From an uncultured Collinsella sp. (GTDB lineage Bacteria; Actinomycetota; Coriobacteriia; Coriobacteriales; Coriobacteriaceae): 64,000 bases of DNA. A program made the position numbers and the translations under genes. Positions 3,189-63,810 of this stretch are shown here, one piece after another (the first letter of the stretch is position 1; the number at the start of each line of letters is the position of its first letter). Below the pieces are notes generated by a model. The model saw only the letters and a list, made by a program, of their open reading frames with translations. It was not told the DNA's origin and made no database searches. The stretch lies in contig UQIE01000006.1 of NCBI GenBank assembly GCA_900541065.1, positions 2,711-66,710 on the forward strand, in the 5' to 3' direction.

Positions 3189-3493
3189 GGGAAACCCTTT
3201 CGCGTGGTTGCGGCGCGCGGGTGCGCTCCGCTACGGTACAGTGTTCATCATTGTACCTGTCTGGCGCCAAAAGGGGTGTGCTTACTGCGGCGTTACACGT
3301 CTGCAACATGGATGAAGGTTCGATGGGGTGCGTGCTCGCTGCGATTGGGCATGTCGCATTGCACAAAGACCGTGAACCTTTTGTGGGACGCGCGGTGCCG
3401 TGGTACCATAGCCGAGTTTGTTGTCTTGGTCGGAAACCAAGACGCCTTATGCGCTGATCGGTAACCAGCGCCTGACTAATAAGGAGTCCTACC

Positions 3494-3919
3494 ATGAAGC
3501 AGGGTATCCATCCCCAGTATGTCGAGTGCACGGTGACGTGCTCCTGCGGCAACACCTTCAAGACGCACGCTACCGTGTCCGAGATGAAGGTCGAGCTTTG
3601 CAACGAGTGCCACCCGTTCTACACCGGCCAGCAGAAGTTCGTCGACACCGGTGGACGCGTCCAGCGCTTCGCCGACAAGTTCGGTGGCGCCGCTGCCGCC
3701 CAGCTCAAGAAGGCTGAGGAGGCCAAGGCTGCCAAGGCCGCCAAGGCTGCTGAGGCCGAGGCCGCTCGCAAGGCCGCCGCTGAGGCTAAGGCTGCCGAGA
3801 AGGCTAAGCGTGCCGCTAAGTTCGCCGAGGAGGCTGCCAAGCAGGCCGCCGAGGCTCCCGCAGAGGCTCCCGTCGAGGAGGCCGCTGCCGAGGCTGAGAC
3901 CACCGAGGCTGCTGAGTAA
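3494..3919 (+). CDS. rpmE: 50S ribosomal protein L31 (zinc-binding C+ type) with a roughly 70-aa Ala/Lys/Glu-rich C-terminal extension
   Basis: N-terminal 70 aa match L31 (CSCGNTF...[10 protein letters not shown]); the tail consists of [30 protein letters not shown] repeats; a plausible RBS lies upstream. Confidence 0.9.
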
Positions 3920-3955
3920 ATAGCTCGCCGCGGAATCGCTCGCATTCATGGCATA

Positions 3956-3995
3956 AGGGCCGTGCATCCGTTTGGGTGCGCGGCCCTTTTCCTTT
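3956..3995 (+). terminator. intrinsic terminator after rpmE
   Basis: GGGCCGtGCA...TGCGCGGCCC hairpin followed by TTTTCCTTT. Confidence 0.6.
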
Positions 3996-12601: not shown

Positions 12602-12691
12602 ACCAACCTCCAGCAAGCCTAGAGCTACCCATCTAGCCCAACTGTAAAGCGAAAACCCCACCCCAAGTTGCGCAACAATGAGCCCCAATAT

Positions 12692-12760
12692 AAGTTGCGG
12701 TGAAATAGGGACTGATTAGGGCTTTTAACTGCTAAAACAGTCCCTATTTCACCGCAACTT
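12692..12760. repeat. Family A palindromic repeat (REP-like), copy A1
   Basis: AAGTTGCGGTGAAATAGGGACTG-N23-CAGTCCCTATTTCACCGCAACTT; 23-bp perfect inverted arms. Confidence 0.85.
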
Positions 12761-12792
12761 CTAAAGAGGCCCCTTAGTAGCCGCAGGCCAGG

Positions 12793-19425: not shown

Positions 19426-19612
19426 CGGCTGCGGAAAGTGCGACCCGTTTTGAGCGTTGATTCCGGGATGTGCTTTCCGGTTGAGCGCTCTATCGGAAAT
19501 GACATCCCGTTTCGAGCGCTGATTCTGGGACACGGTTTCCGGTTGAGGGCTCTACGGGAAAGTGGGGACCAGTTTGAGCTTGAAATCTGGGACGCACTTT
19601 CCGCCGGCGGGC
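19426..19612. repeat. tandem repeat: about 31-bp unit x about 5.6 copies, two alternating subtypes (about 62-bp super-unit x 3)
   Basis: Units such as GGAAAGTGCGACCCGTTTTGAGCGTTGATTCC and GGGATGTGCTTTCCGGTTGAGCGCTCTATC; begins directly after the spx-like stop. Confidence 0.8.
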
Positions 19613-19621
19613 CTGCCCCAG

Positions 19622-20308: not shown

Positions 20309-20382
20309 TGGGATGTCGTCTAATGGCAGGACAGCGGATTCTGGTTCCGTCAATGGGGGTTCGACTCCCTCCATCCCAGCCA
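20309..20382 (+). tRNA. tRNA-Gln (anticodon CTG)
   Basis: Cloverleaf: acceptor TGGGATG/CATCCCA, anticodon stem GCGGA/TCCGT with loop TTCTGGT, T-arm GGGGGTTCGACTCCCTC, discriminator G, encoded CCA. Confidence 0.85.
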
Positions 20383-20399
20383 TTGCATTTGCTACATAT

Positions 20400-20473
20400 G
20401 GCCCGTTCGTCTAGCGGTTTAGGACGCCGCCCTCTCAAGGCGGAGATCACCAGTTCGAATCTGGTACGGGCTA
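20400..20473 (+). tRNA. tRNA-Glu (anticodon CTC)
   Basis: Acceptor GGCCCGT/ACGGGCT, anticodon stem CCGCC/GGCGG with loop CTCTCAA, T-loop TTCGAAT; 17 nt downstream of tRNA-Gln. Confidence 0.85.
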
Positions 20474-21949: not shown

Positions 21950-21960
21950 GCGCTCTGTAT

Positions 21961-22028
21961 AAGTTGCGGTGGAATAGTTCCTGTTTGAGGCCAAATAGCC
22001 GACAAGCAGGAACTATTTCACCGCAATT
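21961..22028. repeat. Family A palindromic repeat, copy A2 (arm variant GTTCCTG/CAGGAAC)
   Basis: AAGTTGCGGTGGAATAGTTCCTG...CAGGAACTATTTCACCGCAATTT. Confidence 0.85.
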
Positions 22029-22158
22029 TGGTGGAGGGACTTGGCTGACCTGCAATCTTGGCACATATGTGTATGGGGCGGCGTCCGTTATGGGCGCCGC
22101 CTTTTTTGTGGGTACATACATCCATGAGGTTCCAACCCAGGTTAGGGGAGTGATCGTT

Positions 22159-22751: not shown

Positions 22752-22895
22752 ATGGCTGAGGAGAAGAAGACGTATAAGTTTGTGTGCGTCGTTTGCGGTT
22801 ACGAGGTTGAGGTCGACACGCCCGAGCTGCCCGAGGACTACGTGTGCCCGGTGTGCGGCGTCGGCCCCGATCAGTTTGAGCTTGTCGAGGAGTAG
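22752..22895 (+). CDS. rubredoxin (47 aa); absent from the 60-aa ORF track
   Basis: [47 protein letters not shown]; two CxxCG pairs; GAGAGGAG RBS. Confidence 0.85.
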
Positions 22896-22936
22896 CTCGC
22901 AGGCACACGGCGAAAGCCGAACATAGCTCTGTCCAA

Positions 22937-22983
22937 GGGCCCCGGTCGGTCATCCCGGCCGGGGCCCTTTTCTTCCGTCCCCA
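22937..22983 (+). terminator. intrinsic terminator after rubredoxin
   Basis: GGGCCCCGG...CCGGGGCCC stem followed by TTTTCTT. Confidence 0.7.
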
Positions 22984-23039
22984 AGGGATCACGGCTGCTG
23001 TTAGCCGATCCTGTCTGTCGTGAGTCCGGCCGACCGTTT

Positions 23040-23335
23040 GTCTCAATCTGTAACATCTGGCGGCTCAAAACGGGTCTATCTGTTACAGATCGAGACAAAA
23101 GGTTGGAGCTGAAGAAATGTCTCGATCTGTAACATCTAGAAGCGGAAATCGGGTCCACTTGTTACAGATCGAGACAAACCAAAACCATCATTCTCAAAAT
23201 CTCAATCTGTAACATCTGACGGTAAAAACGGGGTCTACGTGTTACAGATTGAGACAAACGGAGCTGTCCCTCGGAATGATCTCGATCTGTAACATCTAGA
23301 CATCAAAAGCGGGTCTAGATGTTACAGATCGAGAC
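23040..23335. repeat. Family D hairpin-repeat array D1: 4 units of 57 bp (16-bp perfect inverted arms GTCTCGATCTGTAACA / TGTTACAGATCGAGAC around a 25-bp core) with 22-24-bp spacers
   Basis: Units at 23040-23096, 23119-23175, 23199-23255 and 23279-23335; not CRISPR (no cas genes, cores and spacers are semi-conserved). Confidence 0.9.
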
Positions 23336-23362
23336 GTTTGCCTAGGTGGACCCCCCGTTCCA

Positions 23363-24619
23363 TTACATCCCGGTCAACAGCACGACGTCGAGCGCCGTTA
23401 CGACGACACCGATCCCTACGAGCAACGCGTTGAGCGGGCGCGAGTTGGCGTATTTGCCCATGACGCGGGGCGAACTGGTGAGTCGTATGAGCACAAAGAC
23501 CGTAATCGGCAACTGAAGCGACAGCAGCGCCTGACTCCAAATGAGACCCTCAAAAGGATTTGGGACGACCAGGCACGCCGCCACTGCGCCGGCGAAACAT
23601 GCCGCCACCCCAATCGAGGAATGTCGGTCGCGGATGTCGTATTCCTCGTCGAACATGCCCGCGGTGATGGTGCCTGCCGCCATGCCTGCCGTCACACTAC
23701 TCGAGAGGCCCGCAAACAGCAGCGCCACCGCAAAGATTGTCGAGCTTGCTGGGCCCAGAATGGGGGAGAGCGTGTCCGCTGCGACGGCGAGGTCGTCTAC
23801 GACAATGCCGTGCGCAAAGAAGGTCGTTGCGGCCAGGATGACCATGGCCGAGTTGATTGCCCAGCCCACGCCCATCGAAAAGAGCGTGTCGAAGAGCTCA
23901 TAGCGCAGGCGCTCTTCGATAACCTGCTCGCCTTGGCCTTCGAAGTGCATGGATTGGATGACCTCGGAGTGTAGAAAGAGGTTGTGGGGCATAACGACCG
24001 CACCCAGGACACTCACGATAATCGCGGCAGAGCCAGTGGGCATACTGGGCGTGATCCAGCTTGCGGCGGCTTGCGGCCAGTCGACCTTGACTAGTGCAAG
24101 CTCGGCCAAAAACGAGAGTCCTACCACGCCTACGAAGGCGATGATCCAGCGTTCGGCACGCTTGTAGGAGTTCGTCATGAGCATCGCCATCGATACTGCC
24201 GCCACGATGGCGCAGCCCGCACGCACGGGCAGCCCAAAGAGCATTTGAAGGGCAATCGCGCCACCCAGGACTTCGGCCATGGCGGTGGCGATGGTCGCGA
24301 GATAGGCACTGGCGAGCACCGTGCGTCCAACGAAGCGGGGGAGGTAACGTGTCGTGGCCTCGGCAAGACAGGCGCCCGTGGCGATACCCAGGTGCGCCGC
24401 ATTGTGCTGCAGCACAATGAGCATAATCGTGGACAGTGTGACGATCCACAGCAGCGCGTAGCCAAACTGCGAGCCCGCGGCCATATTGGAGGCCCAGTTG
24501 CCCGGGTCGATAAAGCCGACGGTCACGAGCAGCCCGGGGCCGATGTGCCGCGCAATGTCTAGGCCTCCGTGACCACCGGTGCGTCGGCAGCCAAAGTGTT
24601 GTTTGAGATGGTTGAGCAT
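23363..24619 (-). CDS. mntH: NRAMP-family divalent metal (Mn2+/Fe2+) transporter
   Basis: About 418 aa, 11-12 TM; DPGN motif (GFIDPGNWASN); AGGAGC RBS at the MLNHLKQ start. Confidence 0.9.
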   Translation of the reverse strand: MLNHLKQHFGCRRTGGHGGLDIARHIGPGLLVTVGFIDPGNWASNMAAGSQFGYALLWIVTLSTIMLIVLQHNAAHLGIATGACLAEATTRYLPRFVGRTVLASAYLATIATAMAEVLGGAIALQMLFGLPVRAGCAIVAAVSMAMLMTNSYKRAERWIIAFVGVVGLSFLAELALVKVDWPQAAASWITPSMPTGSAAIIVSVLGAVVMPHNLFLHSEVIQSMHFEGQGEQVIEERLRYELFDTLFSMGVGWAINSAMVILAATTFFAHGIVVDDLAVAADTLSPILGPASSTIFAVALLFAGLSSSVTAGMAAGTITAGMFDEEYDIRDRHSSIGVAACFAGAVAACLVVPNPFEGLIWSQALLSLQLPITVFVLIRLTSSPRVMGKYANSRPLNALLVGIGVVVTALDVVLLTGM

Positions 24620-24741
24620 GGTGAGCTCCTGCGTGCCGTTTGTTTGACGCCGCAAAGGATACCCGTTTTAGGCTCAAAAGTTAACCAAGACTAACAAAAT
24701 TGTTGTATTTGAATAGGATGGTGAAAGGGGATTGCTGAAAT

Positions 24742-24798
24742 GTCTTGATCTGTAACAACTAGGGATGGAAATTGGATCTTACTGTTACAGATTGAGAT
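24742..24798. repeat. Family D hairpin unit D2 (single, slightly degenerate) in the mntH/gltB divergent region
   Basis: TGTCTTGATCTGTAACA-N25-TGTTACAGATTGAGAT. Confidence 0.8.
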
Positions 24799-24982
24799 GT
24801 TTGAAGTGGTGAGTTTACAGGTCGAACTTGGGGCCCTTGTTGTCGCCCTTGAGGTCGGCGGCACCCACTCGTAGGGCGTGCGTTACGCGATTGTTTCGAA
24901 ACGGGCGGGAAACACAACGGGCCGGCGATGCTCCTAGTATGCCTGTTCAACTGACTGTCTAAATATCTAGGGGAGGATCGCG

Positions 24983-27900
24983 ATGCAGGCAGATTCCGCT
25001 CAGCAGCAGGGCCTTTATCGTCCCGAATTCGACCACGATGCATGTGGCATCGGCGCGCTTGCCGATATCAACGGTGAGCGTCATCACCAGATTCTGGACG
25101 ATGCGCTATCCATTCTGGTCAACTTGGAGCACCGCGGTGGCACGGGACTCGAGAAGAACACCGGCGACGGCGCCGGCATCCTGTTCCAGGTTCCGCATCA
25201 CTTTTTCCGTAAAGAGGCCCAAAAGTGCGGCCAGATTCTGCCGGCAGAGGGCGACTATGGCGTGGCCATGCTGTTCTTCCCGCAGGACGACAAGGGCGTA
25301 GAGGATGCCCGTCGCGTGTTTGAGGAGGGCTGCGCCGAGGCCGGCGTACCGCTGCTCTTTTGGCGCGAGGTACCCGTCGATCCGCACGACCTGGGCGAGA
25401 CGGCCCGCGCCTGCATGCCCACCATCTTACAGGCTTTCCTGGGCCGCCCCGACGACACGCCGGCAGGTGACGCCTTCGAGCGCCGCCTGTACGTGTGCCG
25501 CCGCACCATCGAGAAGAAGGCTGACGCCGAGTTCGCCCTGCGCGACAAGATCTTCTACGTGTGCTCCATGAGCTCGCGCACTATCGTGTACAAGGGCATG
25601 CTCGTCGCCACACAGATGCGCCGCTTCTTCATCGACCTCAACGACGCGGCCGTTAAGACGGCCGTAGCGCTCGTTCACTCGCGCTACTCCACCAACACCA
25701 CGCCCAGCTGGGAGCGCGCACCCCAACCGCTTTATCATCCACAACGGCGAGATCAACACCCTCAAGGGTAATGTCAACTGGATTCGCGCCCGCGAGCCCA
25801 ACCTGTACAGCCCCGTGCTGCAGCACGATCTTGAGCGTGTGATGCCCATCATCAACCGCGAGGGCTCCGATTCCGCGATTCTGGACAACGTGCTCGAGTT
25901 CCTGGTCATGAACGGTCGCCCGCTCACGCGTGCCGCGTCCATGTTGCTGCCCGAGCCGTGGGACCACAACGACAGCCTGAGTGAGGAGCGCCGCGCCTAC
26001 GACGCCTACCAGTCCATGCTCATGGAGCCGTGGGATGGCCCGGCGGCCATCGCCTTTACCGACGGTCGCACGCTGGGCGCTGCCCTCGACCGTAACGGCC
26101 TGCGCCCGGCTCGCTACTACGTGACGCGCGACGGCCGCTTTATGCTGGCAAGCGAGGTGGGCACCATCGAGGTGAGCCCCGAGAACATCCTGACGAGCGG
26201 CTGTCTGGGGCCGGGCCAGATGCTCGAGGTCGACTTTGCCCGCGGCCGCGTGATCTACAACGACGAGCTGCGCGCCCGTTACGCCAAGGAAAAGCCCTAC
26301 CGTGATTGGATTGCCGAGGAGACACTGACCGTCGACGCGCTCGATAGGCCTGCCGCGGCAACGCCCGCCGAGGACGCCGAGGTGCCCGCCGCCGTGCGCA
26401 TGGCCAAGCTCGGGTATCACTGGGATGACGTCGACGAGGTCGTGCGTCCCATGGCCCAGCAGGGCAAGGCGCCGCTCGCCTCGATGGGCATCGATGCGCC
26501 GCTGGCCTGTCTGTCCAAGAAGACGCGCTCCTTCTACGACTATTTCTATCAGCTGTTCGCCCAGGTCACGAACCCGCCCATCGATGCCCTTCGCGAGCAT
26601 ATGGTCACCTCGACCACGCTCTACCTGGGCAACCACGGCAACCTGCTCGAGGACTCCCGTACGGCCTGCCAGCTGGTTCGCCTGGAGCGCCCGTTGCTCA
26701 ACGAGGAGGAGTTTGACCGCATCTGCGCCATCGACCGTGTGGGCTTTAAGACCCGCCGTTTCCGTGCCGTGTACCGCCGTGATGCCGGCGAGGGCGCGCT
26801 GCAGGCTGCGCTCAAGCAGCTTGCAGAGGATGTTGAGGCCGCGGTCCGCGACGGCGTGAACATCGTGGTGTTGAGCGATCGTGCCGCTGCGGGCGAGGTG
26901 CCCGTGCCGTCGCTGCTCGCCGTGGGCTGTGTGCACAACCACCTGATCCGCGCCGGCGTGCGTACCTTTGCCGACATCGTGGTGGAGTGCGGCGACGCCG
27001 TGTCCCCGCACGACTTTGCGGCACTGGTGGGCTACTCCGCGAGCGGCATCTATCCGTACAACGCACACGCGTGCATCCGCGATCTGGCGGCACGCGGCGA
27101 CCTGGATGTGACGGCCGAGCAGGGCATCGCCAACTACAACAAGGCTGCGACCGCCGGCATCGTCTCCATCATGTCCAAGATGGGCATCTCTACGGTGCAG
27201 AGCTACCATTCGGCGCAGATCTTCGAGGCCGTGGGCTTTACGCCGGAGTTCGTTAACGCGTACTTCGCCGGCACGGTGAGCCGTGTGGGCGGTATGGGTG
27301 TCGAGGACGTCGAGCGCGAGCAAAACGAGCGCTATGACGCCGCGCTCGCTATCCTTAAGAGCCCGGCTCCCGATCAGCTGCCCACGCTGGGTCTGACCAA
27401 GTGGCGCCCGCTCGGCGGCGAGGATCACCTCATCGATCCGCAGACTGTCTACCTGTTGCAAACCGCCTGCCGTGAGGACAGCTACGACACCTTTAAGGAG
27501 TACAGCGCCCGCCTGCATCGCACCGGCCGTGCCGTGCGCCTGCGCGACTTGCTCGACTTTGATGCCAGCGGCCGCACTCCGGTGGCACTCGACGAGGTCG
27601 AGTCCGCACTCAACATCGTCCGCCGCTTTAACACCGGCGCCATGTCGTATGGCTCCATCAGCAAAGAGGCACACGAGTGCATGGCCATCGCCATGAACCG
27701 CCTGCATGGCCGTTCCAACTCGGGCGAGGGCGGCGAGGATCCGCGTCGCGAGACCCCGCTGGCTAATGGAGACTCCAAGAACTCCGCCATCAAGCAGGTA
27801 GCAAGTGCGCGCTTTGGCGTGACGAGCCGCTATCTGTGCAGCGCCTTCGAGATTCAGATCAAGATGGCCCAGGGCGCCAAGCCCGGCGAGGGTGGCCACC

Positions 27901-29678
27901 TGCCCGGCAAGAAGGTCTACCCCTGGATCGCCGAGGTCCGTCAGTCCACGCCCGGCATCGGCCTGATCTCGCCTCCGCCGCACCACGATATTTACTCCAT
28001 TGAGGACCTGGCAGAGCTTATCTTCGATCTTAAGAACGCCAACCCCGGTGCGCGCGTGTCGGTCAAGCTGGTCAGCGAGGCCGGCGTCGGCACCATCGCT
28101 ACCGGTGTGGCCAAGGGTGCTGCCGACAAGATCTTGATCAGCGGCCACAATGGCGGCTCGGGTGCCGCTGCGCGCGACTCTATCTGGCATGTGGGTCTGC
28201 CGTTGGAGCTTGGCCTCGCCGAGGCTCAGCAGACGCTGCTGCAAAACGGCCTGCGCTCACGCGTGGTGCTCGAGGCCGACGGCAAGCTCATGGACGGCAC
28301 CGATGTTGCCGTCGCCTGCTTGCTGGGCGCCGAGGAGTTTGGCTTTGCGACCATGCCGCTCATCTCCATGGGCTGCCTCATGCAGCGCGACTGCCAGCAG
28401 GACACCTGCCCGGCCGGCATCGCCACGCAGAACTGCCGCCTGCGTCGCGGCTTCCGCGGCAAGCCCGAGCACGTTGAGCACTTTATGCTCTTTGTTGCCG
28501 AGCAGCTGCGCGAGGTCATGGCGAGCCTGGGCTTCCGCACCGTCGACGAGATGGTCGGCCATCCCGAGTGCTTGCGCCAGATCGAGGTCCCGGGCAACCG
28601 CAAGGCCAACCTGCTCGATCTGTCGCCCGTGCTGGCAAGCGCGACCTGCGAGTTCGGTGCCCATATTCCGGGCGCCGACGGTCGCCACTTCCTGCCGCAG
28701 ATGGCCGCGGACAGCGAGCTCGACAAGACGCTCGACTCCACGTTGTTTGTGCCCTATACGGCCGACGCCCGTGCGCATCTGCGTCCGATTCGCTTCCGCG
28801 CCGATATCGCCAACGTCAACCGCTGCGTGGGCACCATCTTGGGCAACGCGGTGACCAAGGCGCATCCCGAGGGCCTGCCCGCCGGCTCCATCACCATCGA
28901 TTGCGATGGTTCGGCCGGCCAGAGCTTTGGCGCCTTCCTGCCGCGCGGCATTACGCTCAACGTGTGCGGCGACGCCAACGACTACTTTGGCAAGGGACTT
29001 TCGGGCGGCGAGGTGTCGGTGCGCCCCAACCCGCATGCGACCTACAAGTTCGACGAGAACATCATCGTGGGCAACGTTGCGTTCTTTGGTGCCACGAGCG
29101 GCCGCGGCTTCATTAACGGCCTGGCGGGCCAGCGTTTTGCCGTACGCAACTCCGGTGCCACCGTGGTGGTCGAGGGCTGCGGCAACCATGGCTGCGAGTA
29201 CATGACGGGCGGTCTGGCACTCATCCTGGGCGAGGTCGGGCAGAATTTTGCCGCCGGCATGACAGGCGGCGTGGCCTACGTCTTTGACCAGTACGGCACG
29301 CTCGACGCCCGCGTGAACCACGAGAGCGTGGAGCTCAAGGCCCCGACGGCCGGTGAGCTGGCGCAGATTCGCGAGCTCATCCAGGAGCACGTGGACGCGA
29401 CGCAGAGTCCGCGCGGAATTAAGCTGCTCTACAGCTTCGACTCGATGAGCAAGCACTTTGTGAAGGTCATTCCGACCGAGTACGAGCGCGTGCTGGCGAT
29501 TGTCGCCGCGGGTGAGGCTGCCGGCAAGACGCATGCGCAGGCCGAGGAGCTGGCGTTTGACATCGTGACCGGTCGCGCGAGCGCCGCGGATGTCGCTCGC
29601 TTTGATGTTGCGGGCAGTGCTGCGGGCGCTGCGTCCGTGGCTGCCAGCTCTGTTGCTTCGACCAAGAAGGAGGCGTAA
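24983..29678 (+). pseudogene. gltB: glutamate synthase large subunit gltB interrupted by a frameshift (two ORFs, 24983-25771 and 25815-29678)
   Basis: N-terminal amidotransferase domain (MQADSAQQQGLYRPEFDHDACGIGA...) ends out of frame at ...SWERA; the conserved HPNRFIIHNGEINTLKGN continues in the +1 frame from about 25718; the rest (FMN, Fe-S and GXGXXG domains) is intact. Confidence 0.85.
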
Positions 29679-31532: not shown

Positions 31533-32240
31533 ATGACTGACCAAGTTTTTAACCGAGCAGAGCTGGCCGAAGCCGTTGGCAACGATATTGCCGACATGGC
31601 CCACTTTTGGATGCTGCGGAAGTTTCAATTCCTGGAGCCGGCGCGCGAGCAGTTCGAGATTATCGTCGATCCGTGGCTCAGCTATTGCGAGGAACCTTCT
31701 CAAAACGAAATCATGGCCTACAACATGGCGTTTACCGATTGGCTGCTGTTTGAGCGCCCCTATTACCACGGCAAGACGCTGTTGGAACTGTATGTGGACG
31801 AGCCGCCAGCGTCAATTTCTCCTGCTTCGCTCGGGCGTCTTAAGCAGGTGCGTGACACGCAGTATTTCTCGCGCTTTGGCATTTTGGACAAGGATCCCGC
31901 GACTGGCATTGTCGTGCTGAAGGACACGCGCACCGACCGTCGCTTTGACGTCTACGACCCACATATCGTGCAAAAGGAGCACTGGAACGATGGCGCGATT
32001 GCGGTACGACTCGCGTGCGTCGACGATGTCTGGCTGACGGCGGGGCAGCTCTACTTGTATGACATCGCGCGCCTGAGCGACACGGCGGTCGACGGGCCGG
32101 GCGCGGTGCATCCCGAGGACCTAGAGGACGGTTTCGATACCTCGTGCATCAGCTTCTTTTTGCGCCTGGTCCGCGACATCATGGGTGCTCAGGGACGCTA
32201 CGTGAAGTCGCTCAATATTTACGAGCAGGAATGGGAGTAG
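31533..32240 (+). CDS. hypothetical protein (235 aa)
   Basis: AGGAGGA RBS; no recognisable motif. Confidence 0.55.
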   Translation: MTDQVFNRAELAEAVGNDIADMAHFWMLRKFQFLEPAREQFEIIVDPWLSYCEEPSQNEIMAYNMAFTDWLLFERPYYHGKTLLELYVDEPPASISPASLGRLKQVRDTQYFSRFGILDKDPATGIVVLKDTRTDRRFDVYDPHIVQKEHWNDGAIAVRLACVDDVWLTAGQLYLYDIARLSDTAVDGPGAVHPEDLEDGFDTSCISFFLRLVRDIMGAQGRYVKSLNIYEQEWE

Positions 32241-32280
32241 GGGACGGGCGGTTGTCGCCTGCCTTGCCTTCCGCCTTTAT

Positions 32281-32418
32281 GTCTCGATCTGTAACGTTTA
32301 GAGGCCGTTTGGGGCCGTAACTGTTACAGATTGAGACAAAGAGGTGCAATGCTGCACGAATGTCTCGATTTGTAACGTTTGGCGGTCAAAAATCGGTCTT
32401 CCTGTTACAGATCAAGAC
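32281..32418. repeat. Family D hairpin-repeat array D3 (2 units, cores in opposite orientation)
   Basis: Units at 32281-32337 and 32362-32418; arms GTCTCGATCTGTAACG / TGTTACAGATTGAGAC. Confidence 0.9.
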
Positions 32419-32444
32419 GTTTGCCGACGGCGGCAACGGTGACA

Positions 32445-33515
32445 ATGGCCCATTTCTCCGATGTGGTGGTGATGGAAGTGTCTAATACCGTTCTTAAACA
32501 CAAGTATGCAACACGTAACACCTTGGCGCGAAATAGGATGCTAGCCAGGCTCACGGAGGCGGCTGAACAAGGCGTGCTGCTTGTGACACACGACAATGCC
32601 GAGCTCATGTGGCTGCGGCGTCATGTGGGAACCGATGATATTGCGGAGCCCGAGCCGTATTTGTTCTGTTTTCAACATGATTGGGATGCGTTGACGCCGG
32701 CGGAGCGAGCGCTGCGTACCATCAAAGGGCTTGCGGAGTTTCATCCCGATTGGGCGTTTTGGGGTTATGACGCGGCACTTTTGTGGGGTTTGGAGGTGCC
32801 GAATGATCTGCTTGGGCCGCGATTTCTTGTTAAGACAGGTTACTCGGTGCCGCTGAGTGCAGGATGTCGGCTGTTGCGTCCGCAGGCGGCGGGTGCGCTT
32901 GAACAAGTCGACGGCGTGCGGGCGACGCCGTTTTGGCGCACGGTAGAGGATTGCCTGCTGCGCGCGCCGTTTTCGTATGGCTTGGCGATTGCCGATTCTG
33001 CGTTGCGAGCAAAGGGCGTATCGCGCGATGACTTTTGTGAGCGGCTTCGTATGGATTGTGAAGGCAAGCGCGGGCATCGCAGAGCGCAGGTGATTGCGTC
33101 GTATGCGGACGGGCTGTCCGAAAACGGCGGCGAGTCTCGATTTCGGGCGTTCTTTATTGCGTACGGTTTTCCGGTGCCAGAGTTGCAGGTGGAGTTCCGT
33201 GATCCGCTCAATCCGACCAGCGTGTTTCGAGTCGACTATTTTTGGCGGCTCGAGGACGGGACATGTGTCATCGGCGAGCTCGATGGAAAGGGAAAGTATG
33301 CCTTACAGAACGACGAGGGCCGGGAGTCGGTCGACCCATTCGTGGCAGAACGTCAACGGGAGTCCCATCTGACGATGCTCGGACATAAGGTACTGAGGTT
33401 TACGTTTGATGAGCTCAAGAACCCGGGGAAGCTGGCTGAAAAGATGAGACTGGCGGGCATTCCGCGACGGGCCGATTTGGCTGAGGAATGGAGACGCCAG
33501 TGGTATGGGTGCTAA
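32445..33515 (+). CDS. hypothetical protein with a C-terminal DUF559/PDDEXK-like endonuclease-fold segment (resembles AbiEi_4 plus DUF559 proteins)
   Basis: C-terminus ...ESHLTMLGHKVLRFTFDELKNPG resembles the Vsr/DUF559 fold tail; flanked on both sides by family D arrays. Confidence 0.45.
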   Translation: MAHFSDVVVMEVSNTVLKHKYATRNTLARNRMLARLTEAAEQGVLLVTHDNAELMWLRRHVGTDDIAEPEPYLFCFQHDWDALTPAERALRTIKGLAEFHPDWAFWGYDAALLWGLEVPNDLLGPRFLVKTGYSVPLSAGCRLLRPQAAGALEQVDGVRATPFWRTVEDCLLRAPFSYGLAIADSALRAKGVSRDDFCERLRMDCEGKRGHRRAQVIASYADGLSENGGESRFRAFFIAYGFPVPELQVEFRDPLNPTSVFRVDYFWRLEDGTCVIGELDGKGKYALQNDEGRESVDPFVAERQRESHLTMLGHKVLRFTFDELKNPGKLAEKMRLAGIPRRADLAEEWRRQWYGC

Positions 33516-33557
33516 GGGGTGCGGCTGACGCGGGTGTGGTTGTTCCTACCGAGTTTG

Positions 33558-33774
33558 TCTCGATCTGTAACAACAAGGGGCCGTTTGGCCTCGTAACTGT
33601 TACAGATCGAGACAGAAGGTTGGCTGCCGCTAAAAGATCTCAATCTGTAACATCTAGAGGCCGAAAACCTGTCTAACTGTTACAGATCGAGACAAAGGTT
33701 GGACGAGGTGCCGAAAGATCTTGTTCTGTAACATTTGGCTGCTAAAACCCGGTCCACCTGTTACAGATTGAGAC
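33558..33774. repeat. Family D hairpin-repeat array D4 (3 units)
   Basis: Units at 33558-33614, 33638-33694 and 33718-33774; spacers contain AAGGTTGG as in D1. Confidence 0.9.
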
Positions 33775-33923
33775 ATTTCCCGGACGTCGCTGGGGTGGGA
33801 CTGCAACGCGTTCCGTTCTCCGTATCTCCTCCTTTCTCCGTTAACCGATATGTCCGCAGCAATCCCGCTGCACTGGGTAATAATGGACAAATGTTCAAGT
33901 TAATCGTGAGGGAGGAGCTCGAT

Positions 33924-36245: not shown

Positions 36246-36290
36246 GGCGAGTCCTCGTTTCTGGTCAATCCTTCAAATGCCTCACCCTCA

Positions 36291-36358
36291 GTTGCGGTGA
36301 AATAGTTCCTGATTGAAGGCTTAAAGCGTTTAAACCGGAACTATTTCACCGCAACTTC
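36291..36358. repeat. Family A palindromic repeat, copy A3, inside the cop operon between copZ and csoR
   Basis: AGTTGCGGTGAAATAGTTCCTG...CCGGAACTATTTCACCGCAACTT. Confidence 0.85.
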
Positions 36359-36400
36359 TGAGGGGCTGGTTGGGCAGCGGTGTCTGTTGGTGCGCAGCTG

Positions 36401-36774: not shown

Positions 36775-39117
36775 TCAGCGCGCCGTCTTAGGCTTAAAGG
36801 TTCGCAGGCGCAGGGCATTGCTTACGACGCACACGCTCGACAGGCTCATTGCCGCCGCGCCGAACATCGGCGAGAGCTGCCATCCGGTGAGCGGGAAGAA
36901 CACGCCCGCCGCCAGCGGAATGCCGATGCCGTTGTAGAACAGTGCCCAGAACAGGTCCTGCTTGATGTTGCGGATCGTGGCGCGCGAAAGCTCGATGGCG
37001 CGGGCGACGTCCATGAGGTCGCTGCGCATGAGTACCACGTCGGCGCCCTCCTTGGCGATGTCGGCGCCGGTGCCGATAGCGAGGCCCACGTCGGAGCGCG
37101 CCAGGGCGGGGGAGTCGTTGATGCCGTCGCCCACCATGGCGACCTTGCCGCCCGCATCCTGCAGTTCGCGCACGTGACGTTCCTTGTCGGCGGGCAGGAC
37201 GTCGGCGATAACCTGTTCGCTGGTGAGTCCCACGCGGCGAGCGATGGCCTCGGCCGTCACGCGGTTGTCGCCGGTGAGCATGCGCACGTCGACGCCGAGC
37301 TTGCGGAGCGCGGCGATTGCCTCGGCGCTCGTCTCTTTGACCTCGTCAGCCACGGCGATGGTACCAACGAGTTCGCCGTTCTTGGCAAAGAACAGCGGCG
37401 TTTTGCCCTCGGTAGCAAATTGCTCGGCAAGACCGGCGGGCACCCCTGCGCCCAGCTCGTTCATCAGACGAACGTTGCCGGCTGCGATGACATTCTGCCC
37501 CTCGCGCGCCGTGACGCCGCGACCGGGCACGGCGGCAAAGTCCTCGACCATGCGTGCGACGATTCCGCGCGTCTCGCACTCGGCCATAATCGCCTCGGCC
37601 AGTGGGTGCTCACTCTGGCGCTCTAGTGCGGCGGCAAGCTTGAGCAGCGCCTTTTCACTCATGGTGGGCGAACCGTCGGCACGCACGGCTGCTACGATGT
37701 CGGTCACAGCCGGTTTGCCGCGGGTGACGGTGCCGGTCTTATCGAGCACCACAGTGCCCACGTTGCGCAGATTCTCCAGCGCCTCGGCGCTCTTAAACAG
37801 GATGCCCATCTCGGCGCCCTTGCCGGTGCCCACCATAATGGCGACGGGCGTGGCCAGGCCCAGCGCGCACGGGCAGCTGATCACCAACACGGCCACGGCG
37901 GAGGTGAGCGCCTCGTTCACGCTGCCGGTCAGCGCCATCCACACCGCAAAGGTCACGGCCGAGATCGCAAACACCACGGGCACAAACACGCCGGCGACTT
38001 TATCGGCCATGCGGGCGATGGGCGCCTTGGTGGCGTTGGCGTCCTCGACAAGCTGGATGATTTTGGCGAGCGACGTGTCGGTGCCCACGCGCGTGGCGCG
38101 GAAGGTAAACGATCCGGTGCGGTTGACCGTGGCGGCGTTGACGGTGTCGCCGGCGGTCTTTTCCACGGGGATGGACTCGCCGGTGAGCGCGCTCTCGTCC
38201 ACGGCCGAGCTACCCTCGAGCACCACGCCGTCGACAGGGATGGACTCTCCGGGGCGCACGCGCAGCACTTGGCCGGGAAGGATGCTGTCGACGTCGACGG
38301 TGGTTTCGGTACCGTTGTCGGCCACGATGGTCGCGGTCTTGGGCGCCAGGTCGATCAGCGCCTCGATAGCGCCGCCGGTCTTGGACTTGCTGCGCGTCTC
38401 GAGGTATTTGCCCACGGTGACGAGCGACAGAATCGTGCCGGCGCTCTCAAAGTACAGGTTGTCCATGCCCGTCATCATAGCCTCGTGGACCTGCCCGGCG
38501 GCCAGCTGGTCGGCCATGATGAACATAGCGTAGAGCGACCAGGCGATCGACGCGGTGGCGCCGACGGCGATGAGGGCGTCCATGGTGGGCGCGCCGTGCA
38601 CGAGTGATTTGAAGCCGTTGATAAAGTACGCGTCGTTGACGTAGACGATGGGGATGAGCAGGACGAGCTCGGTGAGCGCCAGCGTCATGCTGTGGGTGTG
38701 GTCGGTGAAGACGCTGGGCAGCGGCCAGCCGAGCATGTGTCCCATGCCTATGTAGAACAGCGGAATGAGAAAGATGATTGAGATGATGAGTCGGGTGCGC
38801 ATAGCGGAGGCAGTGGCCTCTAGCTTTTTGGTGGGCGACTCCATATGGGTGGCTCCGGATCTGGCTTGCGCGTTGCCGCTTGAGTTGGCGGCATCGGTGC
38901 CCGTGCTGACGGGCGAGGCCGAATAGCCCGCGCGGTCGACGGCGGTGCAGATATCGTCGGGGGAGACCTGCGCGGGGTCATAGTCGACCATCATGGAACC
39001 GGCGAGCAGGTTGACCGCGACGCTTTGGACGCCGTCGAGCTTGCTCACGGCGCGGTCCACGTGCGCCTGGCAAGCGGCGCATGTCATGCCGCCCACGTCG
39101 AACTTATCTTGAGCCAT
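36775..39117 (-). CDS. copA: copper-translocating P1B-type ATPase
   Basis: 780 aa; N-terminal [14 protein letters not shown] ([12 protein letters not shown]), DKTGT phosphorylation site, [10 protein letters not shown]. Confidence 0.92.
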
Positions 39118-39270
39118 GGCTTCTCCTTTCTGTGGCGTAGTGTTGGAATTGTTAACCTGCCGATACTATACACCCATACCCCCTGGGGGTGTCCAGTGGA
39201 GATTGAAATGTATGACATTCTGGTATTGGTCGAGGTGATAGCCAGGTCGGCGGACCGTAGCCGGTCTAAT

Positions 39271-39488
39271 GTCTCAATCTGTAACAACTAGACCCGTTTT
39301 TGTCGAGTAACTGTTACAGATCGAGACATTACATCGAGCCACAACTTAACGTCTCAACCTGTAACGCCTAAGGACCGTTTTTCCTGCTAGATGTTACAGA
39401 TCGAGACAAACCGTCCGCGGTCAACTCAAATGTCTTGATTTGTAACATCTAGAGAGGTTTTTGACCCCTTACTGTTACAGATCGAGAC
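39271..39488. repeat. Family D hairpin-repeat array D5 (3 units)
   Basis: Units at 39271-39327, 39351-39407 and 39432-39488. Confidence 0.9.
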
Positions 39489-39530
39489 AATTGCCGGGGA
39501 GGGGTCCCGTCACGGCAAGACGCCCGCCGC

Positions 39531-41615
39531 CTAGATACAGAACCCGGGGATCACACAGGTTAGCTTGCTTGGCTTTTCCGCAGGCGTTGCGTACGTAAAG
39601 ACGTCGCCGTCGTGCCCCACGCGGTTCATATAGAGCGTGCCTTCGCTCTCCGATGTGTCGGGGCTCACCGTGCGCTCCCACCAACAGGTGTCCTTGCCCT
39701 TCCACTGGCGGACCATCGTCTCGTTCGTGGAATACGGGCTCACCTTGAGCTCGCGGAAGAGCTGATACTCCCTGCCCTCGCCGTTGTAGATGTCTGCCAG
39801 GTAGTGATAGCCCTCGGTAAACGAATCGGGCGGTTGCGTACCGCACAGCTCGACCATGGCGGGCAGCCAAAGGGTTGCGGGCAACTCGCTCAGGCACGAT
39901 GCGCTGTTGGCGGCGCCCACATTGTTCGAGACCTTCTTGACCCCTTTAATGAGTGCGCGCAACTCGTTGGGCAGCAGCTTAAGGCCGTCGCCGTTGAGCC
40001 ATTCCCGCAGCTCGCAATCTGCCCAGCCGGCGCTCGGCGGTTCAGCCGCAGCGTTGCGCTCGGCAATACCCGCGTCGAACATAAACGTTAGTCCGGCCTT
40101 GCCCGTCCCGTCCAGAAGCTCATCGTGGCGGATGCCCACAAGCTGCGCGCCAACCTGCAGCCCGTTGGTGAGCGTGACACGCTTGGTACACGGATAGGGG
40201 ATATGCCCATCGGCATCGAGCAGATGATAGCGCCTGGCAATCTCGCGTGCCTCGCTACGGGTCTCGGTGGCCTTAATCTTGAGCGAAATCTCCTGCAGCT
40301 GATCCCAAGTGTAGTCGTCAAGTGAACTGCGGATGCCGTCCAGGTAGTCGGGGATGCCAAAGCCATGGGTTGCCGCCCCGATAACGCCTAGCCCCGCAAC
40401 GGCTGCGACAACGCCACCGATAATAAAGCGGCGGCGGGTCATGGCATCGTGCCGGGCCTGCTCCAGGATCTCTCTCGCGCGCTCGCCGGCGACGTCGACC
40501 TTAAGGTGCGTACCGGAGTCGATGTCAATTGCGGTGTCACTGCCCGCGCCCTCGCGGCCCTCGGATTCGGCATCGGTGAGGTATGCCGAGAGCACCTCGA
40601 GCATCTGCTGTTCGGTGGGACGATCACGCTGCTCGACTGAGATGCCTTTCATGATGATTTGGACGAGCGCCTCGTCGTCACTGCATCGCGGCTCGAGCGG
40701 CGCCGGCTTGGTCTTGGTCTTTATGAGGTAGAACGAACCGGTTGCCGCGGCACCCGTCGACTCCACATCGAACGGTTTGCGACCGCTGTAGAGCTGGTAC
40801 AGAATGCTCGAAAGCGCGTAGACATCGATTGCCGGCGAGCGGCGAAGGGCCGCGATGCCTTCGATATCCTGCGTGAGCATCTCGGGCGCGGCGTATGCGG
40901 GCGTGGCAAAGCGCCAGATGTCGGCGCGCCGGGTGATCGTGTCATCGCCGAGGGCCATGGTCGCGGAGCCCATGTCGATGAGGCAGGGGTCAAAGGAGCA
41001 ATCGACGATCTGCTGCTCGAGCGTTCGACTGGTGGTACGGAACATGATATTGGCGGGCGACAGGTCGCGATGGACGACCGGATTTACGAGTCCCTGGGTC
41101 ACCAGGAGTGCGCGAAGCACGGCGTTTCCAACGGCGGCCACCATCTGGGTGGTTAGCCCGCCCGAGGCATCGTGCGGAAGCAAGGGCAGCGCCTGCTTGA
41201 GCGAGGTGCCCTCGACCCACTCCATGAGGATGAGCGGGTCGTCCTCGCACGATCCATAGCCATAGACGCGCGGAAATCCGCGCAGGTGCGAGACAGTGCA
41301 CAGATGACGGTACTCCTCGAACAGCGCGGCGGTATTGGCCAGGTGCGCAGCCGCTTGCTCGGCGGAGCGGTCGGGGGCTTGGCCGGAAAGGATGGCATTG
41401 TCCTTGAGTAGCTTGACGGCAAAGACCTCGCCGCTCGTGTTGGTCGCGCGCAGCACGTGCCCGATGTTGCCGTTGTTGCGGTGGGCCGTCTGGAGAATAA
41501 GCGTCATAAACCGACGCTTGGCGTCGTCCTCGGCGCTGGGGTCGACCGCCACGGCGGTATCGAACGTATCGAGACGGACGAGTTTGTCGCCATAGGCGCT
41601 ATCGGTAGTATCCAT
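39531..41615 (-). CDS. membrane Ser/Thr protein kinase-like protein with an atypical catalytic loop and a roughly 300-aa extracytoplasmic C-terminal domain of unknown type
   Basis: Hanks-type motifs VAIK-like FAVKLL, HRDLSPANIM (Ser where the catalytic-loop Lys is expected), DMG for DFG, APE (YAAPE); one TM helix (FIIGGVVAAVAGLGVIGAA); AAGGAA RBS at MDTTDS. Confidence 0.75.
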   Translation of the reverse strand: MDTTDSAYGDKLVRLDTFDTAVAVDPSAEDDAKRRFMTLILQTAHRNNGNIGHVLRATNTSGEVFAVKLLKDNAILSGQAPDRSAEQAAAHLANTAALFEEYRHLCTVSHLRGFPRVYGYGSCEDDPLILMEWVEGTSLKQALPLLPHDASGGLTTQMVAAVGNAVLRALLVTQGLVNPVVHRDLSPANIMFRTTSRTLEQQIVDCSFDPCLIDMGSATMALGDDTITRRADIWRFATPAYAAPEMLTQDIEGIAALRRSPAIDVYALSSILYQLYSGRKPFDVESTGAAATGSFYLIKTKTKPAPLEPRCSDDEALVQIIMKGISVEQRDRPTEQQMLEVLSAYLTDAESEGREGAGSDTAIDIDSGTHLKVDVAGERAREILEQARHDAMTRRRFIIGGVVAAVAGLGVIGAATHGFGIPDYLDGIRSSLDDYTWDQLQEISLKIKATETRSEAREIARRYHLLDADGHIPYPCTKRVTLTNGLQVGAQLVGIRHDELLDGTGKAGLTFMFDAGIAERNAAAEPPSAGWADCELREWLNGDGLKLLPNELRALIKGVKKVSNNVGAANSASCLSELPATLWLPAMVELCGTQPPDSFTEGYHYLADIYNGEGREYQLFRELKVSPYSTNETMVRQWKGKDTCWWERTVSPDTSESEGTLYMNRVGHDGDVFTYATPAEKPSKLTCVIPGFCI

Positions 41616-41786
41616 GGCGTTCCTTTGTCTGGCATGGGTTGCCGCACGTTTACGCGAGCAGTGCGGATATCGGTAAAGTACCATGATAGCCGCACTGCCC
41701 ACGTATACCGCTGAGCATTGTCGTTTACGACACAGAAGGTAGAAGACGAAAGACGGACGGCGACCGTCTTCCGATCGCTGTCCGTG

Positions 41787-42779
41787 CTAGTCCACAATGA
41801 CAAGGAATGTCGTGTAGAGACCCAGATGGAGCCTGTCGCTGTTGGCGATTTCCACGGGGGGATAGACTTTGCCGGGTTCGCGTTGGTCGCGCGGCGGCTC
41901 AATCACAATATCGCCGTCGCCCGCGCCCGATTCGAGCACTGTGCCGTTGGTCGATCCAAGGCCCTGGGCGTACCAGTGCTCACCCTCGAGCCAAATGCGA
42001 AGATGCTCGCGCGAGGCGTCGGCGCCTACATCGGTGATGCTGGGCGAGGTTTTGGGCAAAGAACCAATCACGGTGCCGCGCGGATCGCGTGTGAGGGGAT
42101 GGATTTGCATGTCGGCGCAGTTGTCGGCATGGGTTCTGAGCAGACCGAGGTTGGGAGCGACGGTGTGCGGCTGCTCCAGGCTGCTCATAAAGCCGCGTCC
42201 GACGGTAGTTTCGGTGGTGCCAAAGTGCCCGCCCGTCTTGCTGGCGCAAAAGCGCTCGACGGTGGTCACGCCCTGAACGGGATCGGCGAGCGCCCCCGTT
42301 GCCACAAAGAGCATAAGGTAAAGCGTGCTTTTCTCGCGCACGGCATTGCCGTCAAAGTTGTCGATGCGATTGAGGGCATTTGCATATAGGCGGCTGTCCA
42401 GCTTGTAGCTGGCGAGAGCCGACATCATTTCGTTGGCGGCCGGACCGCGATAGTGCTCGGCGATTGCCCGATAGGCGGACTCGCCGCCGCCGAGCTTGCT
42501 GCAGATTGCCGAGGAAAGGTTGAGCGTGGTGACGGTAAAGTCGCTGTAGATGGAGGGCGCGCACTGGTCAGGCTTGCGATGGACGATGTAACGGGTGAGA
42601 TACGAGCGGTTGGAAGAGCATTTCTCGAGCAGGGTACTGCCGAGATAAGAGTTTCCATTGATGAGCATTCGGGCGATCTCGAGATGTTTAAGACCGCCGA
42701 ACGAGCGAATATCGTTATAGAGGACCGAGCAAGGCGTCTCTGCTGCCACGGATACCTCCTTTGATTGCTTCCTAGCCAA
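41787..42779 (-). CDS. FHA domain-containing protein with an N-terminal domain of about 220 aa of unknown function
   Basis: C-terminal FHA signature (...REHLRIWLEGEHWYAQGLGSTNGTVLESGAGDGDIVIE...LHLGLYTTFLV); directly downstream of the kinase gene. Confidence 0.7.
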   Translation of the reverse strand: MARKQSKEVSVAAETPCSVLYNDIRSFGGLKHLEIARMLINGNSYLGSTLLEKCSSNRSYLTRYIVHRKPDQCAPSIYSDFTVTTLNLSSAICSKLGGGESAYRAIAEHYRGPAANEMMSALASYKLDSRLYANALNRIDNFDGNAVREKSTLYLMLFVATGALADPVQGVTTVERFCASKTGGHFGTTETTVGRGFMSSLEQPHTVAPNLGLLRTHADNCADMQIHPLTRDPRGTVIGSLPKTSPSITDVGADASREHLRIWLEGEHWYAQGLGSTNGTVLESGAGDGDIVIEPPRDQREPGKVYPPVEIANSDRLHLGLYTTFLVIVD

Positions 42780-42928
42780 TATGGCGATAGGAATTAATGG
42801 CCCCCGGTGGGCGACGTATTAAATGGCTGCGCAATATATAGCGTAACCAAAGCAACATTATAGGCCACATGTTCGAAATTGCAGGAAGACCGAGAGATTT
42901 TGGTTGGACTGAACGGAAATCCCCCTCT

Positions 42929-42985
42929 GTCTTGTTCTATAACATTTGGACCCGGTTTTGCCCTGCATCTGTTACAGATTGACAC
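42929..42985. repeat. Family D hairpin unit D6 (single, degenerate)
   Basis: TGTCTTGTTCTATAACA-N-TGTTACAGATTGACAC. Confidence 0.65.
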
Positions 42986-43256
42986 AATCGGCCAGGCCCA
43001 CCTCGTCCGCCTCGTCATCTGTGGTTTACGTGGGGGCATGCGAAGCGCGGGTATACTAACCGGCGGCGAATCTGCTCCATCGCTTAGAGCTGCTGCGTCT
43101 GGACGGCGCGTGATAGGGCTGCCAAAGCGATCGCCAGCGTGCTGAGCAACGTCCTCTCTGTGCGCACCTGTTTTTGTATGTATTAGCGCACTACCAAGCA
43201 CGCTCGCGCGGCCGCATGCCGTGCCCATAACGCGTGCAGATAAGGAACAACAACAT

Positions 43257-45491: not shown

Positions 45492-45635
45492 TGGTGCAAT
45501 GGGGCCAGGTTAATCTGCATCAACGTCTTGAAGTTGCGGTGGAATACGGACTGTTTTGGCCTTTTGAGCGGCTTTGCAGTCCCTATTTCACCGCAACTCA
45601 TGATTGGTGCAAACAAACCTGACCCCATTGCACCA
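45492..45635. repeat. Family B MITE-like element carrying a nested family A repeat (A4 at 45531-45598)
   Basis: Left end TGGTGCAATGGGGCCAGGTTAATCTGCATCA, right end TGGTGCAAACAAACCTGACCCCATTGCACCA; the family A copy has one arm mismatch. Confidence 0.8.
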
Positions 45636-63674: not shown

Positions 63675-63726
63675 CGATGCAGCGGCCTCGGCTGATACAG
63701 TAGTACCGACTGAGGCCGTCCTCTCT

Positions 63727-63795
63727 AAGTTGCGGTGAAATAGGGACTGTTTGGCGGTTTTAAACGCTCAAACAGTCCCTATTTCACCGCAATTT
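63727..63795. repeat. Family A palindromic repeat, copy A5, between convergent genes
   Basis: AAGTTGCGGTGAAATAGGGACTG...CAGTCCCTATTTCACCGCAATTT. Confidence 0.85.
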
Positions 63796-63810
63796 ATGAA
63801 GGGGATGGGG

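Follow-up and report, generated by a model that had tools for sequence, protein, structure and literature searches.

A manganese transporter gene that stands alone between arrays of stable hairpins raises the question of whether the hairpins are there because of the gene. Such a gene, mntH, is found in an uncultured Collinsella sp. (assembly GCA_900541065.1, contig UQIE01000006.1, positions 2,711-66,710; this whole 64,000-nt stretch is called the window). The initial annotation had read the hairpin units, called family D, either as terminators that insulate a module or as a sign that mntH was acquired as a cassette, and had proposed a metalloregulator box in its leader. From the comparison with related loci a different answer emerges. 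Family D is an undescribed repeat family that resembles the REPINs (repetitive extragenic palindromic (REP) doublets forming hairpins) and BIMEs (bacterial interspersed mosaic elements), and its position beside mntH is incidental. The gene itself is native, and it appears to stand alone because its lineage lost the operon partner.

Family D arrays at mntH and across Collinsella

A family D unit consists of two inverted boxes of 15-17 nt, TCTC[G/A]ATCTGTAACA, exactly 25 nt apart, and measures 59 nt. The full consensus reads (W W T R) TCTC[G/A]ATCTGTAACA - 25 nt - TGTTACAGAT[C/T]GAGA (Y A W W). The 25-nt spacer was found in 373 of 376 units, in a scan that permitted 22-28 nt, and arrays repeat with a start-to-start period of 80 bp (139 cases) or 81 bp (86 cases). 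Thirteen of the 15 box positions are conserved above 96%; the loop shows only a weak, asymmetric conservation (TAG...AAA...TCTA) and the linkers show none. Within an array the loops can point either way (111 neighbouring pairs agree in orientation, 64 differ), with no tie to the direction of the flanking genes. The units have a GC content of 37-44% and their hairpins are predicted to fold with -12 to -38 kcal/mol. By inspection, the only internal dyads of the consensus box TRTCTCRATCTGTAACA are the 4-mers TCGA and GATC, and a GTAG/GTGG head is absent.

At the locus in question, mntH (23363..24619, minus strand) encodes an NRAMP Mn2+ transporter of 418 aa, with its ATG at 24619 and the ribosome-binding site (RBS) GGAG. 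The protein matches Pfam Nramp PF01566 and NCBIfam NF037982 (131.8 bits, cutoff 50); against the MntH subfamily model NF001923 it scores 324.5 bits, under the cutoff of 430. Downstream of the gene lie four units of 59 nt each, at 23039..23097 (TGTCTCAATCTGTAACA - 25 nt - TGTTACAGATCGAGACA), 23118..23176, 23198..23256 and 23278..23336, with start-to-start spacings of 79, 80 and 80 bp. The last of these forms a perfect stem of 22 bp, and 26 nt separate its end from the mntH stop. The RNA of this array in mntH sense is predicted to fold with -152 kcal/mol (z = -12). A lone unit is situated at 24741..24799 in the gap between mntH and the divergent gltB, about 45 bp upstream of a conserved promoter element. 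The initial annotation had thus placed its four downstream units and one upstream unit correctly, far above chance, and its calls of mntH, rubredoxin and gltB agree with the Pfam and NCBIfam matches. The 11-mer GATCTGTAACA (at most one mismatch) occurs 25 times in the window, compared with a mean of 0.43 in shuffles.

Bracketing by family D is not a privilege of mntH. A search with a profile hidden Markov model, built from 345 units outside the window, returned exactly 14 units at six intergenic sites, all with E <= 5e-10. Apart from the two flanks of mntH these are an array of two units at 32279..32420 and one of three at 33555..33776, both in gaps between co-directional genes, three units at 39269..39490 between the genes for a copper-type P-type ATPase and a Ser/Thr kinase, and a degenerate single unit at 42928..42987 between the divergent genes for an FHA-domain protein and a DEAD-box helicase. 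An open reading frame (ORF) at 32445-33515 and the kinase-FHA gene pair at 39531-42779 are consequently bracketed like mntH.

Outside the window, a pattern scan of one genome per species gave at least 120 loci, almost all in records named Collinsella. The fetched loci, in which genes were called with a codon log-odds caller and checked against Pfam, yielded 392 units in 156 arrays of one to eight units. Two or more units are present in 133 of these arrays, and in nine the overlap with a predicted gene exceeds 30 nt. After orthologues had been collapsed into about 37 site groups, 14 groups occupied divergent, 11 convergent and 10 co-directional gaps, against a background of 20%, 17% and 64% for all gaps. 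The pattern also occurs in 12 contigs of a viral collection (IMG/VR, L133-L144), with one to three units each, none of which overlaps the window region; they may be prophages of Collinsella or pieces of chromosome misfiled as viral.

The relatives of the mntH locus were retrieved via the MntH protein and hence independently of the repeat. In these Collinsella relatives the order gltB / array / [gpmA] mntH / array / rubredoxin - flavin reductase - smpB is kept, the bracketed gene being discussed below. Relatives at 90, 86 and 83% MntH identity carry family D on both flanks of mntH, with two to four units per side. Across Collinsella and Olsenella the MntH identity is 80-96%, and the GC content of mntH (0.616) and that of its third codon positions (GC3, 0.754) match the gene averages of the window (0.621 and 0.777). 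In Olsenella uli, and in another relative whose neighbouring genes differ, gpmA-mntH is present and no family D was found in the 11 kb fetched. It had been suggested to compare synteny across relatives. The same gene order without GC or GC3 deviation was indeed recovered, and by the refuting condition given with that suggestion the arrays just occupy intergenic DNA. mntH is a native gene and not a cassette, and the acquisition proposed for it is refuted by its native composition, the conserved protein and the conserved gene order. The arrays appear to have occupied pre-existing intergenic DNA at mntH since the ancestor of this Collinsella clade, and family D would have resided at fixed intergenic sites, both mntH flanks included, since before these species diverged.

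Within these sites the number of units is variable. For each of the six sites in the window, orthologous arrays exist in other Collinsella species, and the gap lengths differ by about 80, 160 or 240 bp. The rubredoxin-mntH gap contains half a unit or two, three or four units in other species, with linkers that are orthologous across species. The shorter arrays in this gap hold chimeric units, in which the left and right parts match different units of the window. At 3800-3960 of locus L125, in its gltB-gpmA array, two adjacent units, linker included, are identical to one another over 80 bp, which marks a tandem duplication of very recent date. The chimeric units and the exact duplication indicate that units are gained and lost 80 bp at a time, through recombination or slippage from one box to another. 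In L065 the array orthologous to 39269..39490 ends in a truncated unit. Of the 805 boxes, 25 lie outside called units; most of them belong to degenerate units and about five are truly solo (truncated units).

Box sequence, hairpin pairing and known repeat families

What is conserved in family D was determined from 139 pairs of orthologous arrays of equal size. Boxes have accumulated 3.0% substitutions and 0.0001 indels per site. The corresponding values are 12.8% and 0.0045 for loops, 14.5% and 0.029 for linkers, and 8.0% and 0.0155 for the non-repeat flanks. Boxes thus diverge four to five times slower than loops and linkers.

Pairing between the arms does not show the same constraint. Polymorphism reaches about 50% at two positions of the box (G/A in the left arm, C/T in the right arm), and for the pair -2/44 the combinations GC, GT, AT and AC were counted 78, 74, 70 and 65 times, which equals independence. 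The arms are likewise independent at the pair -7/49. Once orthologues had been collapsed into 121-211 clusters, no covariation between the arms was detected (Fisher p 0.07-0.88). Nor were double changes in excess among the less common variable pairs. A-C mismatches occur as often as G-U on either strand, as chance predicts. An anti-correlation of neighbouring boxes was a sampling artefact that disappeared when orthologous copies were collapsed; after this de-replication neighbouring boxes are uncorrelated and give no sign of local homogenisation.

The boxes and the length of the loop are therefore constrained, and the complementarity from arm to arm as such is not. Since all four arm combinations occur at independence and the boxes evolve slowly, the boxes would be conserved as sequence and not as a paired RNA stem. 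Each box is then presumably recognised as sequence, most probably by a protein that acts on DNA. A further step can be offered only tentatively and is in our judgement rather doubtful: the boxes might be binding sites of a dedicated Collinsella DNA-binding protein, for example a domesticated non-RAYT transposase (RAYT: REP-associated tyrosine transposase) or an architectural protein, with selection on the phased 80-bp arrays as chromosomal elements that separate transcription units. If true, the REPIN-RAYT partnership would have a counterpart in actinobacteria, via sequence-specific recognition of the duplex rather than via hairpin structure.

Among the known repeats, REPINs and BIMEs come closest to family D. 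They share the two conserved inverted boxes with a less conserved spacer of kept length, the ordered tandem clusters, the long-term vertical persistence and a high copy number, as the 14 units in 64 kb would extrapolate to hundreds of extragenic copies per genome. BIME-2 elements also have an alternating box orientation, with two alternating spacer classes. For REPINs, inverted boxes, a spacer whose length counts, tandem clusters and vertical persistence have been described, together with common compensatory changes (PMC3116915). In contrast to these, family D lacks compensatory changes in its arms, and its boxes are neither small palindromes, as REP boxes are, nor do they start with a GT[AG]G head. 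Arrays are moreover the rule in family D, about one third of its sites lie between divergent genes and its host is an actinobacterium (Coriobacteriia).

Other families are less similar. Miniature transposable elements with inverted repeats (MITEs: Correia of Neisseria, ERIC, RUP, BOX) are also short, non-coding, dispersed in intergenic DNA and bounded by terminal inverted repeats, and BOX elements contain tandem internal modules in variable number. Unlike MITEs, family D comes without target-site duplication or insertion polymorphism among orthologous sites, the sample contains no autonomous element that shares its ends, and its unit is far shorter and arranged in strictly phased arrays. The mycobacterial interspersed repetitive units and variable-number tandem repeats (MIRU/VNTR) resemble it in being tandem, intergenic and actinobacterial, with units of 40-100 bp whose copy number differs from strain to strain and species to species in whole-unit steps. 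They differ in that family D is strongly palindromic, conserved in its boxes only and dispersed to many loci. Literature searches found no description of such repeats in Collinsella. Overall, family D is not specific to mntH, and it is reasonably probable that it represents a non-coding palindromic repeat found throughout the genus Collinsella and belonging to the REP/BIME/REPIN kind.

Several points have to be set against this reading. Neither a RAYT nor any other mobilising enzyme or box-recognising protein was identified in the roughly 1.05 Mb of sampled DNA (the window and 147 loci, a partial genome sample); tblastn with E. coli RayT and IS200 TnpA gave nothing below E = 0.5. For none of the 113 arrays that have orthologues was an empty orthologous site observed, in a sample biased towards occupied sites. 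No excess of flanking direct repeats was detected as a trace of target-site duplication (offsets 6 to 12, lengths 2-8; 168 de-replicated units), and no long element bounded by family D boxes was found in the window and the fetched loci. Past mobility is accordingly inferred only from the dispersed distribution. Most loci were fetched because they bear the repeat, and a large share of them are orthologous copies of a small number of sites (about 37 independent groups). Finally, concerted evolution could be partly behind the conservation of the boxes, a weaker alternative to selection.

The gpmA-mntH operon and its leader

In the relatives the gene directly upstream of mntH, in the same direction, is gpmA, encoding a 2,3-bisphosphoglycerate-dependent phosphoglycerate mutase (NF010713, 389 bits, cutoff 305). 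The leader of mntH in the window corresponds to the promoter and leader of this gpmA-mntH operon. It is collinear with the relatives up to ...AAACGGCACGCA and then jumps to GGAGCTCACCATG. At the junction (24630..24634, minus strand) the gpmA leader is fused to the mntH RBS through the 5-mer ACGCA. As the 0.9 kb missing here is bordered by ACGCA on either side in the relatives, gpmA seems to have been lost by a deletion at 5 bp of microhomology. The ancestral unit would thus be a gpmA-mntH operon, and mntH stands alone because this lineage deleted gpmA. The description of mntH as a single-gene module holds for this genome, as a lineage without gpmA. In Collinsella the presence of gpmA is polymorphic: ten loci lack the gene, six keep it and L127 contains decayed remnants. 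The larger mntH-gltB spacers of L031 (1567 bp) and L011 (1227 bp) contain gpmA (about 0.9 kb) and extra units, not foreign insertions.

The combination of the two genes has a parallel in physiology. In S. aureus starved of Mn, induction of the metal-independent GpmA reaches about 40-fold, and the enzyme protects glycolysis (PMC6684088). By analogy, a metal-independent mutase together with a manganese importer would make sense as a pairing for manganese limitation.

The retained promoter region contains a footprint in otherwise diverged DNA, seen in an alignment of the sequences upstream of gpmA/mntH from five lineages (the window, L125, L129, Olsenella (L131/L146) and L147). It reads T(T/G)GTTAG-NNN-TGGTTAACTTT, followed after 8-9 nt by AACGGGTA-NN-CT, and its core consists of the direct repeats TKGTTAG-N3-TGGTTAA. 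In the window the promoter-proximal element is TTGTTAGTCTTGGTTAACTTT (24677..24697, minus strand), with two TKGTTAR direct repeats 10 bp apart. It forms the core of the metalloregulator box of the initial annotation. The second repeat overlaps a predicted -35 hexamer, TTAACT (24679-24684). The conserved AACGGGTATCCT (24656..24667, minus strand) is a predicted extended -10 region, with TATCCT at 24656-24661, 17 nt from TTAACT. It speaks against this promoter assignment that a consensus promoter scan called nothing in the region and that the predicted hexamers match at only 8 of 12 positions. With the assignment, mntH would be driven by the ancestral gpmA-mntH promoter, with the direct-repeat element as regulator site. 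The element over the -35 region is a likely regulator site; it is not a palindrome of the DtxR type.

The proposed box had been described as a partial dyad matching the DtxR/IdeR consensus. The string quoted from the leader is present (complement of 24666-24694), and the best match of 12/19 to the consensus TTAGGTTAGGCTAACCTAA was counted correctly. Matches of at least 12/19 are found at 16 of about 128,000 window positions and at 10 of about 20,500 intergenic positions, so that about 0.1 are expected per leader. Dyad symmetry is absent, with two of nine half-site positions self-complementary. What stands of the proposal is a plausible regulatory site, in a stretch that is conserved across genera; the assignment to the DtxR/IdeR type falls with the chance-level match and the missing dyad.

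An operator of a DtxR-family (MntR/IdeR-like) manganese repressor is therefore an unlikely identity for the element, although more than the 12/19 match could be cited in its favour. The site is AT-rich, covers the promoter of a manganese transporter and overlaps the -35 hexamer, a typical position for a repressor. It has been kept upstream of gpmA-mntH in five lineages (Collinsella, another relative and Olsenella), the content of the operon fits a manganese-limitation regulon, and the half-site-like words GTTAG and GGTTAA resemble the DtxR box GGTTAG. However, 12/19 is the level of chance in AT-rich intergenic DNA, and the conserved words are direct repeats, whereas the operators of DtxR, IdeR and MntR are inverted repeats. 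A distance of 27 nt separates the outer ends TTAG...CTAA that the initial annotation had paired, and the right-hand one lacks conservation. The footprint motif has no second copy in the window, and tblastn identified no DtxR/MntR homologue as a cognate regulator in the window and the fetched loci, a partial sample.

Possible effects of the arrays, and neighbouring features

The four downstream units probably lie in the 3' untranslated region (UTR) of mntH, because no other terminator precedes them. In this position the hairpins could block 3' exonucleases or read-through. Such effects of the arrays on mntH would be by-products of the conservation of the boxes at the level of sequence.

It is improbable that the arrays are insulators or terminators selected specifically to isolate the transcription of mntH. 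The downstream array begins 26 nt past the mntH stop with no earlier hairpin, its four hairpins are predicted to be very stable, and arrays on both flanks are kept in all Collinsella relatives examined. However, family D lacks the GC-rich stem and T/U tract of intrinsic terminators. None of its units is followed by a T-run, mixed sequence being found instead, and a terminator scan called no unit hairpin; the one match in the array is a 5-bp stem inside the loop of unit 1. The neighbouring rubredoxin gene (22752..22895, plus strand, 47 aa, convergent with mntH), by contrast, has a canonical terminator of its own between gene and array (22935..22976, plus strand), a GC-rich hairpin followed by TTTTCTT. 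The upstream unit precedes the predicted mntH promoter and falls outside the transcript, and in relatives it precedes gpmA rather than mntH. Family D also occupies four other sites in the window and sits between divergent genes in about one third of the site groups, its loop orientation is independent of gene direction, and its arms are without pairing covariation. Terminators on both flanks, as the initial annotation had it, are thus contradicted by the missing T-runs, by the place of the upstream unit and by the many divergent gaps.

That the arrays encode structured small RNAs or a cluster of processed hairpin RNAs is very unlikely. The strong predicted folding would suit this idea, as would weak, generic hairpin matches to miRNA-precursor models of Rfam. 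Against it stand the absence of compensatory changes, the A-C mismatches that are as frequent as G-U on either strand, the mixed orientation within arrays and the many sites between divergent promoters. At gathering as well as at permissive thresholds, comparison with Rfam assigned the units to no family and revealed no Mn riboswitch in the mntH leader.

Finally, mntH as a mobile cassette with array ends (an integron cassette, a composite element or a MITE-flanked element) is hardly credible: inverted-repeat units do flank a single gene, and boxes in both orientations within each array could in principle allow a segment to be excised or inverted, but composition is native, MntH is highly conserved, linkage of gpmA and mntH extends to Olsenella and the relative without family D at the fetched locus, gene order and orientation are identical in every locus recovered, no recovered locus joins rubredoxin to gltB without mntH, target-site duplications were not found, the boxes (CTGTAAC / GTTACAG) misfit the attC core RYYYAAC/GTTRRRY by inspection of the consensus and, unlike in integron cassettes, the set of genes between the arrays is conserved from species to species.

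Some features of the neighbourhood deserve mention in their own right. The gene gltB, for the large subunit of glutamate synthase (24983..29678, plus strand, divergent from mntH), is split into two ORFs, 24983-25771 and 25815-29678, which cover positions 2-234 and 267-1468 of the large-subunit model. The split is identical in three independent assemblies with identical MntH (L001-L003). Intact genes of 1556-1566 aa are present in L125, L127 and L129, and that of L128 is split elsewhere (831 + 714 aa). The split could be a real frameshift or pseudogene, a case of recoding or a shared homopolymer assembly error. Upstream of gltB, at 24893-24913, lies the perfect palindrome GTTTCGAAAC, with a direct repeat GAAAC-N6-GAAAC of 11-nt period. 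This region is conserved in L125, L127 and L128 and is a candidate nitrogen-regulator site; we take it to resemble the GlnR-type boxes of actinobacteria. Next to the family D array at 39269..39490, a CsoR-like operator palindrome, ATACCCCCTGGGGGTGT (39176-39192), is found upstream of the HMA-domain P-type ATPase gene (36775-39117, minus strand). The bracketed ORF at 32445-33515 (356 aa) is without a match in Pfam or NCBIfam and scores low in codon usage, and a 235-aa ORF upstream of it (31533-32240) is likewise unannotated. The C-terminus of the former (ELDGKGKY...LRFTFDEL) resembles the DUF559/PD-(D/E)XK nuclease type.

The intergenic DNA of this genome is unusually rich in distinct repeat families. 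A second hairpin family, with arms of 23 nt (AAGTTGCGGTGAAATAGGGACTG ... CAGTCCCTATTTCACCGCAACTT), has five single copies in the window, at 12691-12769, 21960-22038, 36288-36366, 45530-45608 and 63726-63804. That at 21960-22038 overlaps the TTG which was mechanically called as start of the flavin-reductase ORF; the real start of this ORF is probably further downstream. A 62-nt repeat occurs in three tandem copies at 19432-19617, and two-copy intergenic repeats are found at 4088-4130/17587-17629, 35899-35940/45485-45526, 3996-4030/45603-45637 and 413-470/57088-57145. The sole Rfam matches in the window at gathering threshold are two tRNA genes (20309-20473) and an L31-Coriobacteria ribosomal leader (3451-3486). 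The leader points to Collinsella as the host, as do the family D loci of the pattern scan.

Collinsella is among the most prevalent human gut actinobacteria, and family D has practical consequences for its genomes. The arrays break short-read assemblies, and they can mislead annotation, as spurious ORFs and wrong start codons overlap the units. Their copy number varies between species in 80-bp steps, which makes them possible typing markers. Some value may also be seen in the constraint on the box sequence without structural compensation, in the gpmA-mntH operon with the reconstruction of its deletion and in the conserved promoter element. For the Coriobacteriia, the comparison uncovers gpmA-mntH as a conserved operon that would serve under manganese limitation, together with a candidate cis-element. 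For Collinsella, boxes that are conserved without compensation from arm to arm point to a putative, hitherto unrecognised protein that binds them.

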